DNA of 64,000 nt. It comes from an uncultured Bacteroidota bacterium (lineage in GTDB: Bacteria > Bacteroidota > Ignavibacteria > UBA10030 > UBA6906). The stretch is taken from NCBI GenBank assembly GCA_963700635.1, contig CAVOYH010000003.1:896001-960000 (forward strand), read 5' to 3'. The translations under genes and the position numbers were made by a program. A model generated the notes under the pieces. The model saw only the letters and a program-made list of their open reading frames with translations. It ran no database searches and had not been told where the DNA came from. Every line of letters begins with the position of its first letter. Position 1 is the first letter of the stretch. Positions 10,099 through 45,551 of the stretch are shown in pieces.

Positions 10099-10172
10099 TC
10101 GGAGCGGGGGGATTTGAACCCCCGACCCCTTGAACCCCATTCAAGTGCGCTACCGGGCTGCGCTACGCTCCG
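10099..10172 (-). tRNA. tRNA-Pro(GGG), CCA not encoded
   Basis: CGGAGCGTAGCGCAGCCCGGTAGCGCACTTGAATGGGGTTCAAGGGGTCGGGGGTTCAAATCCCCCCGCTCCGA; cloverleaf with GGG anticodon; promoter TTGCGT-17-TACATT at 10184-10212. Confidence 0.97.
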
Positions 10173-31472: not shown

Positions 31473-31554
31473 TGGGCATAGGGGGACTCGAACCCTCACG
31501 GATTTCTCCACTAGATCCTAAGTCTAGCGCGTCTACCAATTCCGCCATATGCCC
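31473..31554 (-). tRNA. tRNA-Leu(TAG)
   Basis: GGGCATATGGCGGAATTGGTAGACGCGCTAGACTTAGGATCTAG...GTTCGAGTCCCCCTATGCCCA; long variable arm; promoter TTGGAA-17-TACATT at 31626-31654. Confidence 0.97.
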
Positions 31555-38556: not shown

Positions 38557-38585
38557 TTGACAATGGATGCTGAGCACGGTATATT
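38557..38585 (+). promoter_or_regulatory. sigma70 promoter of riboswitch-nrdJ
   Basis: TTGACA-17 nt-TATATT. Confidence 0.8.
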
Positions 38586-38601
38586 GGCAGCAGTTCATTC
38601 T

Positions 38602-38777
38602 CAATGATGTATCCGGTCAAGGGAATTCCGTCAAAGCGGAAGCTGCCCCGCAACTGTATGTGACAACCGGCGTACGCGCCACTGACTCTGCGGATGGTCG
38701 GGAAGGCGCTACCGCAGTCCATGTCACGAGCCAGGAGACCTGCCGGTTTCATTGTCACGAAAACCTTCGCGGGAAGG
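38602..38777 (+). ncRNA. Cobalamin (AdoCbl-type) riboswitch
   Basis: AAGGGAA, P4 TTCCG/CGGAA, GCCCCGCAACTGT, GCCACTG, GGGAAGGC, B12 box GAGCCAGGAGACCTGCC, P1 CAATGA/TCATTG, P13 CCTTC-GCGG-GAAGG. Confidence 0.93.
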
Positions 38778-38820
38778 GAACTGATACACACAGGTTGGCA
38801 CCCACATCACACCTGTGTAC

Positions 38821-38854
38821 GCCCCTGTTTTCCCGCAGAAGAGAGGGGTTTTTT
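38821..38854 (+). terminator. Riboswitch-controlled attenuator terminator
   Basis: GCCCCTGTTTTC-CCGCA-GAAGAGAGGGG followed by TTTTTT; its TTCCCGC can alternatively pair with GCGGGAA in P13. Confidence 0.8.
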
Positions 38855-38873
38855 CATTTCAGGAGAGAAGCGT

Positions 38874-41399
38874 ATGGTGTTGCAGGACATGTTCGCCTTA
38901 AGAGGCAAGACGGCACGCCGCATCGGTGAAGATCGCACGGCGATGTATCAGCAACTCTATGCAGAACTCTCAGACAAAGTTGAAAACGGAACACTTCCGA
39001 GTCATCCCGACTACTTGTGCGGAAACGAACTCGCTTCCAATATCTATCGCAAAAAGTACTTCGTCAAGGATCTGGGCGGCCAGGCGGTTGAACAAAGGCC
39101 AGAAGATGTGTTTGTACGTCTCGCCTCCTTCCTCGCTTCGACGGAAAAAACCCCCGAACTCCGGACCCGCTGGGCTGAAAGCTTCTATCGTATGCTCTAT
39201 GAAGGCCGGTTCATCAGCGGCGGACGCGTGCTTGCAGGGGCCGGTGACCTGTACCGGCTCAAGACCCTGGCGAACTGTTTCGTTACCACAATCAAAGAAG
39301 ACAATATCGAGTCTATTTACCAGGCGGCATATGAATGCGCCCGGACCTACTCCTACGGCGGCGGCATCGGGGTGGATATCAGCGGACTCCGTCCGAAAGA
39401 TTCCGTGGTCCACAATGCAGCCGACAAATCTACCGGCGCTGTTTCGTTTATGGATATCTTCTCGTTGACCACCGGCCTGATCGGGCAGAGCGGACGGCGG
39501 GGAGCGCTGATGTTGACGATTGACATCAAACATCCCGACGTTCTTGACTTTGTCCGCGTTAAAAAGGTCCCGAACTGGGTCACACATCAGATTGTGGAAC
39601 AATGCCAGTGGTCCGGACGGTTTGATGATGCGCAACTACGGGAAATTGAACGGCAGGTGCGGGAAAACACGCAGGTGCGGTTTGCCAATATCAGCATCAA
39701 GGCAACCGACGAATTTATGCAGGCCGTGGATGAACAAACGCGCTACGGACCGGCCGCAATTCTGGTCTATCGAAAATTCTCCCGTCCCACGGTGTTCTCC
39801 GCGTACCAGGATCAGGACCATCATTATTCCTTTGGCATTCCCGCAAAAGACATCACCGGATACGAATTTGCCGGTGATTTTGCCACACTCGAAGGCCTGA
39901 ATAAATGGCTGGAGAAACAGGGAGGCGGCGCAGTCACGGAAGACCAGCTTGCCGACGGAAGCACCCGCGACGTCTACGGTGACGTCGTTGTGGAGCTCCC
40001 GCAGCAGAAATACGATCTGGCCGTTCGCGTTGCAGGTGATTTTATGCTGTATTTTGCCTCGGCGCAGACCGGCGAAATCCGGCGCCTGACCAAGGCCAGA
40101 GAAATCTGGGATGCCTTTATCGAAAGCAACTACCACACGGCAGAACCCGGACTCATATTCTGGACGGCGATGGCCAAGTACAGTCCGTCGAATTATGTGG
40201 GCAGGCCAATAGCCTGTACCAACCCGTGTGCGGAAGTCCCCCTGGAAGACGGCGGTGCCTGCAACCTCGGCTCCATTAATCTGAGCAGGTTTGTGGTGGA
40301 CGGGTACACGGAAAAAGCCCGGGTGGACTGGCAGGCCCTGACTGAAGTGACACACCATGCGGTGCGGTTTCTTGACAATGTGGTGCTCTGGAACGAGATT
40401 CTGAACCCCCTTGAAAAACAGCGTCGGGCTGCATCGGAGACACGGCGCCTTGGCCTCGGGGTCATGGGTATTGCGGATATGGTCAACCAGCTCGGCAAGA
40501 TGTACGATAGTGATGAAGCGGTGGAGCTGATGGAACGGGTGATGGAGACCATATGTAATGCCGCGTACCAATCGTCAGCACTCCTTGCCGCTGAAAAAGG
40601 CCCCTCCCCGATCTTTTCCTTCGAGGACTATGCGCGGTGCCCGTTCTTCCAGGAAGCGCTCAGCGATGAAACGCGGGCGCTGATACAGGAACACGGGCTG
40701 CGTAATATCGCCATCATGTCCATTGCGCCAACCGGGAGTATTTCCAATATCGTCCTGGGTTTTGCCCACCAGGGAAAAAACTATATCGGTGTGTCAGGCG
40801 GCGTCGAACCGGTCTTTGCACTGTACTACTCACGCCGATCGGAATCCTTTGGCAATCAGATCTTTCGCGTCTTCCACAGCACGGTGCAGGCGTACCTGGA
40901 GATGCACGGACTTGCGGAAGAAGCCCAGAAGAAACCGCTGGATGAATTGTTGCCGGCGCACTTCTTCCGGACAGCGCACGTTATTGCGCCGGACATGAGG
41001 GTCCAGGTCCAGGGAACATGTCAGAAGTTCGTGGATCACTCCATCTCATCAACGGTGAACCTCCCGGAGGATATCGAGCCGGAAGTGATTTCAAGAATAT
41101 ACGTGCAGGCGTGGAAGAGCGGGCTGAAGGGAATCACCGTCTATCGTGACGGAAGCAGGTATCCTATCCTCAGTGTTGACGGCAAGCACACGCCATTTCA
41201 GGAGATCAAAAACAAGAAGTATGCGCTGCGTGTACCGCAGGCGGAGGGAGAGAAACAACAGGTGCAGGAGGTTGCAGGCGAAGAGGTCATACGGATGCCG
41301 GACGGGCGGTTGACGACGGTGTATCATCTGCTGAAACGGCGCGAACAGTCCCGCGATGAGACGCCGAAGGCGACGGAAGTTATACTGAATCAGAACTGA
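38874..41399 (+). CDS. nrdJa: Class II (adenosylcobalamin-dependent) ribonucleotide reductase, large part
   Basis: LANCF, GGGIG, RRGALM, EPGLIF, TNPCAE, CNLGSINL, IAPTGSIS, SISSTVN, KGITVYRDGSR; AGGAGA RBS. Confidence 0.93.
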   Translation: MVLQDMFALRGKTARRIGEDRTAMYQQLYAELSDKVENGTLPSHPDYLCGNELASNIYRKKYFVKDLGGQAVEQRPEDVFVRLASFLASTEKTPELRTRWAESFYRMLYEGRFISGGRVLAGAGDLYRLKTLANCFVTTIKEDNIESIYQAAYECARTYSYGGGIGVDISGLRPKDSVVHNAADKSTGAVSFMDIFSLTTGLIGQSGRRGALMLTIDIKHPDVLDFVRVKKVPNWVTHQIVEQCQWSGRFDDAQLREIERQVRENTQVRFANISIKATDEFMQAVDEQTRYGPAAILVYRKFSRPTVFSAYQDQDHHYSFGIPAKDITGYEFAGDFATLEGLNKWLEKQGGGAVTEDQLADGSTRDVYGDVVVELPQQKYDLAVRVAGDFMLYFASAQTGEIRRLTKAREIWDAFIESNYHTAEPGLIFWTAMAKYSPSNYVGRPIACTNPCAEVPLEDGGACNLGSINLSRFVVDGYTEKARVDWQALTEVTHHAVRFLDNVVLWNEILNPLEKQRRAASETRRLGLGVMGIADMVNQLGKMYDSDEAVELMERVMETICNAAYQSSALLAAEKGPSPIFSFEDYARCPFFQEALSDETRALIQEHGLRNIAIMSIAPTGSISNIVLGFAHQGKNYIGVSGGVEPVFALYYSRRSESFGNQIFRVFHSTVQAYLEMHGLAEEAQKKPLDELLPAHFFRTAHVIAPDMRVQVQGTCQKFVDHSISSTVNLPEDIEPEVISRIYVQAWKSGLKGITVYRDGSRYPILSVDGKHTPFQEIKNKKYALRVPQAEGEKQQVQEVAGEEVIRMPDGRLTTVYHLLKRREQSRDETPKATEVILNQN

Positions 41400-41475
41400 C
41401 CTCCGACCGGCAGCAATCTGCCGTAACGATGCGGCGGACGTACGATAGAGCAGGAACATCTCGTAAGGATTACCG

Positions 41476-42087
41476 ATGCTGACACTTCCCACAGGTACGT
41501 ACGACATTGAAGAGATTAAACGCGAGAAAGCACTCATTCCGCGGCTGGAGGCGGGAGAGACGGTAATCGGAACGCGGCCGGATGTCACCGAGGCCCGCGT
41601 CTACCGTTTGCGGAGCGGGTTTGTTAACAATAGTGTGTTCATCACGCTGGGGTACATCCGCGAGGACGGTAAGAACCGTCCGATTGAAATCTTCATTAAC
41701 AGCAAGGACCTCACCAGAGCTGCGGAATATGCCGTCCTCACGCGGCTGATTTCGGCGATATTCCGAAAATCAACCGACCCGACATTTATTCTTGAGGAAC
41801 TCCGGGGGATCTATGATCCGAACGGCGGTTACTTCAAGGATGGTAAATATATCCATTCCTTCTACGCGGAAATCGCAAAGGTCATCGAACAGTTTTTCGA
41901 AGACATCGGAGTCACCCCTATAAAGGGCGGAGCGCAGCCGGTGAACGTGATTGTCTCCCAGGTGCCGGACGACGGCCTCAGTGCCTTGAAAATCTGTCCG
42001 AAGTGCGGCGACCGGTCGGTAAAAATCGAAAACGGCTGTCTGGCCTGTGTCAACGCAGAGTGCGGGTACAGTAAGTGTGATGATTAA
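41476..42087 (+). CDS. nrdJb: Class II RNR C-terminal subunit (TSCPD domain plus Cys-rich tail)
   Basis: RPIEIFIN, LTRLISAIFR, ILEELRGI, CPKCG...GCLAC..CGYSKCD. Confidence 0.88.
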   Translation: MLTLPTGTYDIEEIKREKALIPRLEAGETVIGTRPDVTEARVYRLRSGFVNNSVFITLGYIREDGKNRPIEIFINSKDLTRAAEYAVLTRLISAIFRKSTDPTFILEELRGIYDPNGGYFKDGKYIHSFYAEIAKVIEQFFEDIGVTPIKGGAQPVNVIVSQVPDDGLSALKICPKCGDRSVKIENGCLACVNAECGYSKCDD

Positions 42088-42117
42088 CCGGAGAGAGTGT
42101 GCGGCCCCGCCTTCGCG

Positions 42118-42146
42118 TTGACTTCATCTCTGAATCCTCGTATCAT
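42118..42146 (+). promoter_or_regulatory. sigma70 promoter of dtxR-feoB
   Basis: TTGACT-17 nt-TATCAT. Confidence 0.7.
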
Positions 42147-42198
42147 ACATACAGCAACGGAACCTCTTTCCTTCGCGATTGTTGCTCTATGGCACAGA

Positions 42199-43227
42199 AT
42201 GAATTCCCCAATCCTTACCATATCGCTGTTCTTCCTGCTTATCGCCGTGCTGGCGTTGCTTGTCTGGCCCGGAAAAGGACTGGTTTCGCGCCTGCGCGTT
42301 GCGCGTAAGGAGAAATCCCGGTCGGTCCTTGAAGACGTGCTCAAACACGCATACGACTGCCAGTACCGATCTGTCGCTTGCACGGTCGAAAGTATTGCTG
42401 GTGTACTCCAGACGTCCATCGGAAATGCGACCCATCATGCAACACGCCTGGAGTCGATGGGATTGCTGGAGCACCACGGTCCCGCCCTGCGGCTCACCGC
42501 CGATGGCACATCGTATGCGCTTCGTGTTATCCGCATACACCGGCTCTGGGAGCGGTATCTCGCGGATGAGACCAGTGTTCGTGAAGCCGACTGGCACCGT
42601 GAGGCCGAGCGGCAGGAGCATCGACTCTCACCTGCAGATGCGGATGCGCTTGCTGCCCGGCTTTCGAACCCGCAGCTCGATCCTCACGGTGATCCAATCC
42701 CGTCCGCGACCGGCGAACTTCCTTCAATCCCGGGCGAACCTCTGTCAGTCCTTCCTGAAGGAGAATTCGGGCGCATCGTACACATTGAAGATGAGCCGCC
42801 GGAAATCTACGCCCAGCTTGCAGCGTTGGGTCTGCACCCCGGCATGCAGTTGCAGATGATCCAGAACAAACCACAACATGTGCGCTTCGAAGCGCAGGGT
42901 GAGGAGATGCTGCTGGCATCCCCCCTCGCCCGTCATGTCACCGTCGTGCTGCTTCCCGAAGAACGCCGGAATCGGGGCCCGTTCAAGACACTCACATCTA
43001 TTCAAACCGGACAGACCGCGGTCGTCACCGCCATTTCACGGGCCTGCCGCGGGCAACAACGGCGCCGGATTATGGATCTTGGCATCGTGCCCGGGACACA
43101 TATTTCGGCGGAACTGGACAGTCTGACCGGGAACCCACGAGCGTATCAGGTGCGCGGAACGCTTGTGGCCCTCCGGGAGGAACAGGCCGATCACATTTTT
43201 ATTGAACCGGTTGCAGGTCACGCATGA
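42199..43227 (+). CDS. DtxR/MntR-family metal regulator with N-terminal TM and two FeoA (SH3) domains
   Basis: [34 protein letters not shown] and MDLGIVPG...[11 protein letters not shown]. Confidence 0.88.
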
Positions 43228-44051
43228 GCGACGTACCAAACGATGCCTGCGCGACATGCCCTGCGTTTAACGCCGGTCATCTCACCCGGCTGGGTATCAA
43301 CCTCGCCAACGTTGACTTTGTCATTGCTCTGGCCGGCAATCCGAATACCGGAAAGAGCACGGTGTTTAATGCCCTGACCGGACTGCGACAGCATACGGGT
43401 AACTGGCCGGGGAAGACCGTTGCACGGGCGGAAGGAGGATTCGCGTACAGAGAGAAACGATTCAAGATTGTGGATCTCCCCGGTACGTATTCGCTCCTGT
43501 CGACCAGCGCTGACGAGGAAGTAGCCCGTGATTTTATTCTCTTCGGCAAACCCGATGTCACCGTGATTATCGCGGACGCGACGCGTCTGGAGCGAAACCT
43601 CAATCTCGTCCTTCAAGTGCTCGAGATTACAGATAAAGCCGTATTGTGCGTGAATCTTATCGATGAAGCACGGCGACATAACCTGAATGTTGATGACCGC
43701 GCCCTTGCACGTGAACTGGGCATCCCTGTGGTGCTTACCGCGGCACGGCAACGCGAAGGGATTGATCTCCTTCTGAAGCAGATATTCGATGTTGCCACCG
43801 GTGCGTTTGTGTGCAAACCTCACCGGGTGCAGACAATACCACCGGCAGTCGCCAGGGCGGTAGAACGAATCACCGAGCGTGTGACCGGACTCTTTCCGGG
43901 TCTGCCCAATGCCCGTTGGGTCGCGTTACGGCTGTTGGAAGGCGACCAGCGTATGATTGATGCTGTACAGAGCGGCGAGCTGAACACACTGGTCGACGGG
44001 GCACAGGGGGTGGCGCCACGCGATCACGCGGAAGTCGATGCTGCATCCTGA
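43224..44051 (+). CDS. feoB: FeoB N-terminal GTPase part
   Basis: [32 protein letters not shown]. Confidence 0.93.
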
Positions 44052-44105
44052 GTCGTCGGATGTATTCTTGACGTTTCGCGCATCGGTACGCTCTGCAATT
44101 CATCA

Positions 44106-45551
44106 TTGAATACGATGACACAACCCACACAAGAATCGAGCCAGTCTCTCCTCGCCGAAGCCAACGCGCTGCGCTGGGAGATGGGGGAAGAATATCACGA
44201 CTCCCTCATGGAAGGCATCTACGAAGATGCCGCCCGCATAGCGGATCACTCCGTGACACGGGATGGCGAGAAAAAACGGCTCGACTACGACCGCACGATT
44301 GATCATCTCGTTACGAGCAAGTGGACCGGTTTCCCGTTCATGTTCCTCCTGCTGGCTATTGTCTTCTGGCTCACGGTTGAGGGAGCGAATGTCCCGTCAG
44401 CGTTACTTGCAGACTTTTTTCTGGACACACTTCATCCCCTCCTTAAATCAGCGCTGGAAGCTGTTGGTTCGCCCTGGTGGCTCACGGGGGTGTTGATTGA
44501 TGGCGCCTATCTGGCCGGAGCATGGGTCGTCAGCGTAATGCTTCCCCCCATGGCGATCTTCTTCCCGGTCTTTACCCTGCTCGAAGATTTTGGCTATCTG
44601 CCGCGCGTTGCGTTTAATATGGATGCGCTCTATCGCCGGGCGGGCGCGCACGGGCGGCAGGCCTTGACGATGACGATGGGATTCGGTTGTAACGCCGCCG
44701 GTGTTGTGGCCACACGGATAATCGACAGTCCGCGCGAGCGGCTGATCGCCATCATTACCAACAACTTCTCGTTGTGTAACGGAAGATGGCCGACCCAGAT
44801 CCTCATTGCTTCGATTTTTATCAGCGCCCTTGTGCCTCCCCATCTTGCCGGCATCGTTGCCGCGGGCGGAGTGGTTTTTGTCGCGGTGCTTGGGGTTGTG
44901 CTGAGTCTGGTGGTGTCGTGGTTCCTTTCCCGATCTGTGCTGCGGGGCGAAGCATCTGCCTTCAGTCTGGAGCTTCCGCCGTATCGTCCGCCCCGTCTTT
45001 TGCAGACACTGTACACATCGTTAATAGATCGTACAATCTTTGTGCTCTGGCGTGCGGTGGTGTTTGCCGTCCCCGCCGGTATGGTGATCTGGATTGTCGG
45101 GAATGTGACAATCGGTGACGTGACGGTTGCCGAACATTTTATTCGCTGGTCCAATCCGTTCGGCCTGCTGCTCGGGCTCAATGGCGTCATTCTTCTCGCG
45201 TACATTATTGCCATCCCCGCGAATGAAATTGTGATTCCGACCGTGTTGATGCTTACCGTGCTCACGTCGGCCATACCCGGTATCGGGGCCGGTGCGGGGG
45301 TGATGTTTGAGACTGATTCCGCCATTGCGGCGGCCGAGATTCTGCGGGCAGGGGGATGGACGACGTTGACCGGAATATCTCTGATGATCTTCAGTCTGCT
45401 TCACAATCCCTGCTCCACCACTATTTTTACGATCTACAAAGAAACAGGGAGTATAAAGTGGACGGTTCTTGCGACCCTGCTGCCGCTGGTGATGGGATTT
45501 GTCGCATGCTTCCTCCTGGCGCAGGGCTGGAGGGTGTTTTCCGGTGGTTAA
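44106..45551 (+). CDS. feoB: FeoB membrane (gate) part
   Basis: LEDFGYLPRVAF, GFGCNA, CNGR, ELPPYRPP, PANE, HNPCSTT; start 44106 (TTG) or 44115 (ATG). Confidence 0.93.
   Translation: MNTMTQPTQESSQSLLAEANALRWEMGEEYHDSLMEGIYEDAARIADHSVTRDGEKKRLDYDRTIDHLVTSKWTGFPFMFLLLAIVFWLTVEGANVPSALLADFFLDTLHPLLKSALEAVGSPWWLTGVLIDGAYLAGAWVVSVMLPPMAIFFPVFTLLEDFGYLPRVAFNMDALYRRAGAHGRQALTMTMGFGCNAAGVVATRIIDSPRERLIAIITNNFSLCNGRWPTQILIASIFISALVPPHLAGIVAAGGVVFVAVLGVVLSLVVSWFLSRSVLRGEASAFSLELPPYRPPRLLQTLYTSLIDRTIFVLWRAVVFAVPAGMVIWIVGNVTIGDVTVAEHFIRWSNPFGLLLGLNGVILLAYIIAIPANEIVIPTVLMLTVLTSAIPGIGAGAGVMFETDSAIAAAEILRAGGWTTLTGISLMIFSLLHNPCSTTIFTIYKETGSIKWTVLATLLPLVMGFVACFLLAQGWRVFSGG

Follow-up and report, generated by a model that had tools for sequence, protein, structure and literature searches.

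A cobalamin riboswitch of predicted OFF type upstream of a split class II ribonucleotide reductase in an uncultured Ignavibacteria bacterium

We analysed a 64,000-nucleotide (nt) stretch of DNA, which we call the window, from an uncultured Bacteroidota bacterium (GTDB lineage Ignavibacteria, UBA10030, UBA6906; assembly GCA_963700635.1, contig CAVOYH010000003.1, positions 896,001 to 960,000). On its plus strand, between positions 38557 and 42087, a cobalamin riboswitch precedes two genes, nrdJa and nrdJb, that encode a split class II ribonucleotide reductase. A model that saw only the letters and their open reading frames had proposed that B12 turns this operon off, and had called repression of a B12-requiring reductase by B12 paradoxical; we refer to this as the sequence-only reading. 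Coordinates below are those of the window unless another contig or locus is named, and every feature of the operon and its leader is on the plus strand.

The leader begins with a sigma-70-type promoter (TTGACA-17-TATATT, 38557..38585) that matches the consensus at 11 of 12 positions and whose hexamers are kept in all six of the aligned nrdJ leaders as well as in those of btuB in this genus. The aptamer (38597..38761) belongs to the cobalamin family RF00174 and has a P6 extension and the B12 box. The covariance model matches over its full length (model positions 1-189 of 189) at 84.3 bits with an E-value of 2.6e-19; the gathering score of the model is 31.5 bits, and the match is far above chance expectation. 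Loop L5 (CCCGC) is complementary to GCGGG in the loop of the P13 hairpin, and both segments are kept in the aligned leaders, which retains the kissing-loop complementarity. A ribosome-binding site (AGGAG, 38861..38865), recognised from the letters and also kept in the leader alignment, lies 8 nt 5' of the ATG. Each element named in the sequence-only reading was found where that reading had placed it.

Between the aptamer and the ribosome-binding site are the P13 hairpin (38764..38777, loop GCGG(G)), a helper hairpin (38788..38818), and an intrinsic terminator (38821..38854) made of a hairpin at 38821-38849 and a run of six Ts at 38849-38854. Folded alone, the terminator reaches -15.8 kcal/mol (z = -3.1), and none of 200 shuffles was equally stable. 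A simple terminator scan made no call at 38821-38854, because its loop limit is 8. Among the six nrdJ leaders, P13 is invariant (100% paired), and the helper stem covaries: five of its six pairs are altered on both sides and every cell of this stem is paired.

P13 and the terminator can also pair with each other. GCGGGAA at 38769-38775 is complementary to TTCCCGC at 38830-38836, and the 5' half of the terminator (38822-38841) can pair with P13 (38765-38778). In the fold of the full-length platform (-34.7 kcal/mol), P13, the helper and the terminator coexist. If the 3' arm of the terminator is omitted, which mimics ongoing transcription, then the loop and 3' arm of P13 pair with the 5' arm and loop of the terminator, and the helper hairpin sits enclosed within this antiterminator. 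The terminator fits the predicted bound fold, while the antiterminator is mutually exclusive with it; the antiterminator fold is found in five of the six nrdJ leaders (those of the window, L007, L028, L009 and L033, not L010). Across the six-leader alignment, 83% of cells are paired for the terminator and 77% for the antiterminator helix. The kissing loop would let the ligand stabilise P13, and P13 is compatible with the terminator, so we predict that transcription terminates when B12 is present. Going by these folds, this is most likely a well-formed OFF-type cobalamin riboswitch. The competition between P13 and the terminator, bridged by the helper stem, had been anticipated in the sequence-only reading, as had the OFF direction, which agrees with the fold logic and with the leader's kinship to that of btuB.

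The P13 sequence CCTTCGCGGGAAGG is common to nearly all of the cobalamin leaders of this bacterial family (18 were aligned, and P13 is nearly invariant among them). The terminators of the family's leaders have in their 5' half a TTCCC(G)-like segment that is complementary to P13. As judged from the alignment, P13 with a complementary terminator half is the platform design across the whole family. One of the six nrdJ leaders (L010 2840-3000, genome G204) has about 60 extra nt, with a ribosome-binding site of their own, 5' of the start codon.

The genome has only two RF00174 matches, one 5' of nrdJa and the other (C2:205174-205337) 5' of btuB. The gene behind the match on C2 encodes a TonB-dependent receptor, and its best model is a B12 receptor. 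The nrdJ leader and the btuB leaders of its own genus are alike in their -35 and -10 hexamers, in the sequence of P13, and in the order of helper and terminator; between the aptamers of the two, identity is 72-74%. The family's btuB leaders share this layout of promoter hexamers, P13, helper and terminator, but they govern the ordinary target, a TonB-dependent B12 receptor, whereas the copy in the window governs a reductase. In a tree of 20 aptamers from the family, the nrdJ aptamers of genus g1 adjoin the btuB aptamers of that genus. These comparisons indicate that the nrdJ and btuB leaders of this genus are paralogues. It appears that the leader was copied from btuB to nrdJ as a whole cassette, from promoter to terminator, and reused within the genome. 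The leader of a B12 receptor gene is expected to be an OFF switch, so the paralogous nrdJ leader should be one too.

The first gene of the operon, nrdJa (38874..41399), encodes the 841-amino-acid catalytic subunit. It matches PF02867 and PF00317, contains KGITVYRDGSR, and scores 486.8 bits against TIGR02504 (NrdJ_Z, an NCBIfam equivalog with a curated cut-off of 399.95 bits), so the class II hallmarks that had been claimed from the letters hold. It scores as NrdJ and not as a B12-independent isozyme of the metE, nrdAB or nrdDG type. The catalytic NPCxE and both redox cysteines align with Thermotoga maritima NrdJ (1xje; TNPCAEV, ACNLGS and LANCFV). The second gene, nrdJb (41476..42087), encodes 203 amino acids that form a TSCPD/IscU-like domain followed by a C-terminal Cys-rich zinc-finger tail; this is the separate TSCPD/Cys-tail protein of the sequence-only reading. 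A barrel subunit without a C-terminal Cys pair, with a TSCPD/zinc-finger subunit directly downstream, is the layout of the split NrdJa/NrdJb subclade described by Burnim et al. 2022 (PMC9669993).

The enzyme of Pseudomonas aeruginosa has the same two-gene layout as the one here: one gene encodes a barrel subunit extended by a C-terminal region, and the other a small subunit that combines an IscU/TSCPD-like domain with a Cys-rich zinc finger (in the available text of PMC4520616 and PMC9669993; the two enzymes were compared by layout). No riboswitch is mentioned in those texts for the P. aeruginosa operon, whereas the operon in the window has one. According to the accessible part of Crona et al. 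2015 (PMC4520616), the split NrdJ of P. aeruginosa requires adenosylcobalamin (AdoCbl), with a K0.5 of 13-17 uM, and each cycle probably involves dissociation or relaxation of the cofactor. An orthologous pair in Caldithrix abyssi is 65% identical to the split enzyme of the window and, in the part of PMC5317091 that was consulted, adjoins a gene for a cobalamin adenosyltransferase. These two papers make it likely that the split enzyme of the window is B12-dependent.

Split and canonical NrdJ are only 39-43% identical. Relative to canonical NrdJ and T. maritima NrdJ, NrdJa has about 125 extra residues, in blocks of about 30 (residues 234-263) and about 95 (residues ~286-385). The extra residues are ungapped and 52-84% identical across the family. 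The region that we analysed for this insertion (residues 225-402, window 39546-40079) gave no Pfam family at E-values up to 10. An AlphaFold2 model of this fragment, folded apart from the barrel, has a mean predicted local distance difference test score (pLDDT) of 72.8. Foldseek found no clear match for the model in the PDB (best E-value 1.5), and the best hit of a wide VIA-align search had Z = 4.5 over the first 70 residues only, so no fold could be assigned.

The genome (4.2 Mb, 97% complete, 6.7% contaminated) has three PF02867 genes: the one in the window and two canonical fused nrdJ genes, which encode 802 and 824 amino acids (loci L003 and L004, at C6:142385-143779 and C3:1674917-1676311). 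The two fused genes share 84% identity and their neighbourhood as well (TlpA-like thioredoxin, acyl-CoA synthetase); they are either a segmental duplication or the product of two related strains merged in the bin. The sequence-only reading had noted no nrdB next to nrdJab; NrdB (PF00268) was found nowhere in this genome, and neither NrdD nor CbiC nor CobS was found in it. A PduO-type adenosyltransferase and 10 matches to B12-binding domains are present. With those four proteins not found and PduO present, the organism appears to scavenge corrinoids, and every reductase detected in it scores as the cobalamin-dependent class II type.

Relatives of the split enzyme, at 60-89% identity, are common in metagenome bins of Bacteroidota, Calditrichota and Zixibacteria; among 201 sampled genomes of the phylum, 4 carry the split enzyme at E-values up to 1e-100. 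We looked for the switch at 20 distinct split-nrdJ loci (L035 and L036, which hold only the 3' end of the gene, were left unscanned). RF00174 lies directly 5' of the split nrdJ at nine of the 20: the window, L007, L009 (the same place as L014), L010, L028 and L033, and the loci of G258, G282 and G310. These are spread over two genera. The other eleven lack it (L008, L029, L030, L031, L011, which is the same place as L015, L016, L012, L032, L034, L073 and L074), so the conservation of the riboswitch among homologues, which the sequence-only reading had marked for a check, holds for just under half of the loci. The gene order from a LolA-like gene to nrdJab is shared by the family's genera g1, g110, g111 and g117. 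Within these, the switch is present in g1 (3/3 species representatives) and g117 (2/2) and was not found 5' of split nrdJ in g110 or g111.

The nrdJ leaders of the three g1 species have diverged down to 72% identity. Identity between the g117 aptamers and each of the others that we compared, including g117's own second riboswitch, is about 50%, and in g117 the distance from aptamer to start codon is 360 nt, with a strongly conserved block. Such divergence suggests that the switch was gained either twice, separately, or once long ago with later divergence. The conserved block takes up about 170 nt of this spacer (the spacer at L075 1140-1500 in G282, and that in L076 in G310), is almost identical between the two g117 species and includes a promoter-like TTGATA-17-TACATT. 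It could serve as a second promoter or form a further RNA element.

In family f1, all seven species representatives with the split enzyme (7/7) also have a canonical NrdJ. Elsewhere, the complete 2.4-Mb genome G092 yielded no reductase other than the split enzyme, and the same holds for G018 and G205. G092 and G018 have one cobalamin riboswitch each, and that of G092 precedes a B12-receptor-like gene. In a sample of the whole order, RF00174 was found in 142 of 151 genomes, mostly as a single copy, and PF02867 in 149 of 151. We cross-matched the two by eye among the matches listed (28 riboswitch and 7 reductase matches fall outside these) and followed up the five other genomes of the order that have two reductase matches. 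No riboswitch directly 5' of a canonical nrdJ was seen among the matches listed. In a sister family (f47; G209 at locus L060, and also G214 and G220), the single cobalamin riboswitch, btuB, and a nrdJ of 926 amino acids lie in a row on one strand, with riboswitch and nrdJ 2-3 kb apart. We considered f47 as a second case of a riboswitch with nrdJ and rejected it: in G209, btuB intervenes and is followed by a separate promoter-like site for nrdJ, so we count it as adjacency only.

We propose, and think it fairly probable, that an AdoCbl-responsive transcriptional OFF switch controls an auxiliary class II reductase, so that more apoenzyme is made when B12 is low. When AdoCbl is bound, the kissing loop between L5 and L13 would keep P13 closed, the terminator would form, and transcription would end before nrdJa. 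When B12 is scarce, P13 would open and pair with the 5' half of the terminator, with the helper hairpin bringing the two together, and RNA polymerase would continue into nrdJa and nrdJb. The product would be an auxiliary B12-dependent reductase beside the canonical NrdJ, and low B12 would de-repress the btuB receptor and the extra apoenzyme together. Extra apoenzyme would sustain the synthesis of deoxynucleoside triphosphates and help the reductase to compete for cofactor with the other B12 enzymes of the cell. Class II reductases bind AdoCbl weakly. Since no B12-independent reductase was detected either, making more apoenzyme is a plausible response. Repression by B12 is then less paradoxical than the sequence-only reading had it: the second NrdJ, the scavenger inventory, the kinship with the btuB leader, and the patchy distribution of the switch all soften the puzzle. 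That reading had offered apoenzyme overproduction under scarcity, a corrinoid-specific isozyme, or a NrdJ-like enzyme with another radical source; the evidence favours the first, and the other two are weighed below as rivals.

Several observations weigh against this proposal. The antiterminator helix has no covariation in the six-leader alignment, although it could not have any, because P13 never varies. The terminator state is the minimum-energy state even without ligand, so read-through would have to be kinetic, and the terminator of the L010 leader has no segment complementary to P13. The switch is missing from four loci whose NrdJa is 88% identical (L008, L029, L030 and L031) and from two sister genera (G242 and G226); its absence from equally close relatives implies that it is dispensable. 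In G204 the split enzyme, with its switch, is the only reductase found (the completeness of that bin was not established), which is a poor fit to an auxiliary enzyme. The contamination of our own genome also has to be counted here, and a search for sequencing runs turned up no RNA data for this locus.

The split enzyme could instead be an isozyme for times of scarcity: the switch would still be of the OFF type, and the cell would swap to an enzyme that binds AdoCbl more tightly or that uses other cobamides or incomplete corrinoids. The low identity of split and canonical NrdJ fits this idea, as does the insertion (about 125 residues, conserved and free of gaps), for which neither a family nor a clear fold match was found, and the fact that all of the f1 representatives keep both enzymes suggests that the two are not redundant. 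However, no reductase other than the split type was found in G092, G018 and G205, where it has no switch, so it is general-purpose there, and the only characterised split NrdJ has a modest affinity for AdoCbl (as given in the available text of PMC4520616). We consider this explanation rather unlikely. It is much less likely still that the split enzyme is cobalamin-free and regulated like the metE, nrdAB and nrdDG isozymes. A B12-repressed paralogue beside a B12-dependent one is the pattern of B12-independent isozymes (PMC545781, in the part consulted), and the conserved insertion, for which we have no explanation, also counts in its favour. But the TIGR02504 score exceeds the equivalog cut-off; the neighbours of nrdJab (LolA-like, major facilitator superfamily (MFS), DtxR-FeoA and FeoB genes) include no radical-generating partner; genomes that depend on the split type alone retain a riboswitch-controlled B12 receptor; and, in the accessible parts of the sources, the C. 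abyssi orthologue clusters with B12-handling genes (PMC5317091) and the P. aeruginosa split enzyme is AdoCbl-dependent (PMC4520616). More broadly, we entertain as a tentative idea, rather doubtful, that the split NrdJ is specialised for scarcity, with a cofactor need unlike that of the canonical enzyme (a higher affinity for AdoCbl, other or incomplete corrinoids, or none); its corrinoid-free extreme is very improbable at best. If the split NrdJ is specialised in this way, then the riboswitch performs a true isozyme swap within class II.

The copied leader might also have little adaptive meaning, as a near-neutral by-product of the btuB leader landing 5' of nrdJa and drifting to loss or fixation. 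This would suit its paralogy with the btuB leader and its absence from g110 and g111 despite the same gene order. It would also suit the loci with 88% identical NrdJa: in L008 and L029-L031, the LolA-like gene ends about 30 nt from nrdJa, so the cassette of about 330 nt is cleanly present or absent. Yet the leader persists in three species of the genus whose copies have diverged to 72% identity and whose helper stems carry compensatory changes, and a second genus has an unrelated-looking aptamer in the same spacer, which means either two gains or long retention. We judge neutrality unlikely. Finally, if B12 binding blocked termination, then the enzyme would be made when its cofactor is present and the paradox would vanish. 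Such an ON switch is hardly credible: P13, which the ligand would stabilise, can coexist with the terminator and is in competition with the antiterminator, and the same platform governs the genus' B12 receptor gene, where an ON switch would make no sense. We therefore prefer an OFF switch that raises the supply of an auxiliary apoenzyme.

Elsewhere in the window, in the region 42097-45551, a promoter-like site (42118-42146) directly follows nrdJb. Next comes a gene for a DtxR-type repressor with fused FeoA domains, and behind it FeoB, as two frames (43224-44051 and 44106-45551). Two transfer RNA genes are on the minus strand, at 10099-10172 and 31473-31554 (62.7 and 57.8 bits).

Textbook B12 regulons comprise B12 synthesis, the uptake of B12 and cobalt, and B12-independent substitutes for B12-dependent enzymes. 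A riboswitch 5' of nrdJ did not turn up in any published report in our searches of the full-text literature (subscription papers and bioRxiv supplements lie outside these searches). Rodionov et al. 2003 (J Biol Chem) reportedly state in their abstract that enzymes of B12-dependent pathways may belong to B12 regulons; if so, the general idea may not be new. In the available text of Sun et al. 2013 (PMC3766115), the published regulons cover B12 synthesis, B12 transport, cobalt transport, and isozymes of B12-dependent enzymes; in the accessible content of two of its supplementary files, the term nrdJ is absent (0 occurrences; nrdA has 11 and nrdD 24). B12 elements are described 5' of nrdDG and nrdAB, and none 5' of nrdJ, in the parts consulted of Rodionov et al. 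2004 (PMC545781) and of an RNA-seq study of P. acnes (PMC3848588).

The systems in which nrdAB or nrdDG is repressed by B12 beside nrdJ (the same two sources, to the same extent) have much in common with the locus described here: the same aptamer family, the logic of a terminator and an OFF switch, and the same genomic pattern, with one reductase B12-repressed and the other not. They differ in that they repress B12-independent enzymes, whereas here the repressed enzyme scores as class II and no class I or class III reductase was found. There is a similar likeness to paralogues that are switched in response to a cofactor, such as metal-regulated enzymes and ribosomal protein paralogues (PMC545781, in the part consulted): a second copy is induced when the cofactor is short, as would happen here. 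But in the known switches the induced copy avoids the scarce cofactor, while the copy induced here most likely depends on it all the same. Neither part is out of the ordinary by itself, the aptamer as a member of RF00174 and the reductase as one of the split class II enzymes; it is their pairing that is unusual, with a B12-type reductase as the target of a cobalamin riboswitch.

If a B12-dependent reductase is indeed repressed by B12, this would be a fourth regulon logic, in which there is no substitute and a scarce cofactor is met with more (or better) apoenzyme. The copying of the leader from btuB to nrdJ would be a clean case of the reuse of a whole riboswitch cassette within a genome. One cell with two kinds of class II reductase, one of them B12-regulated, would be a natural pair for comparing cofactor affinity and cobamide range. 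B12 auxotrophs are common in soil and water communities, and the pair bears on how they may apportion a scarce vitamin. The main interest is a question that can be tested: why a B12 auxotroph would keep a second class II reductase that is repressed by B12.

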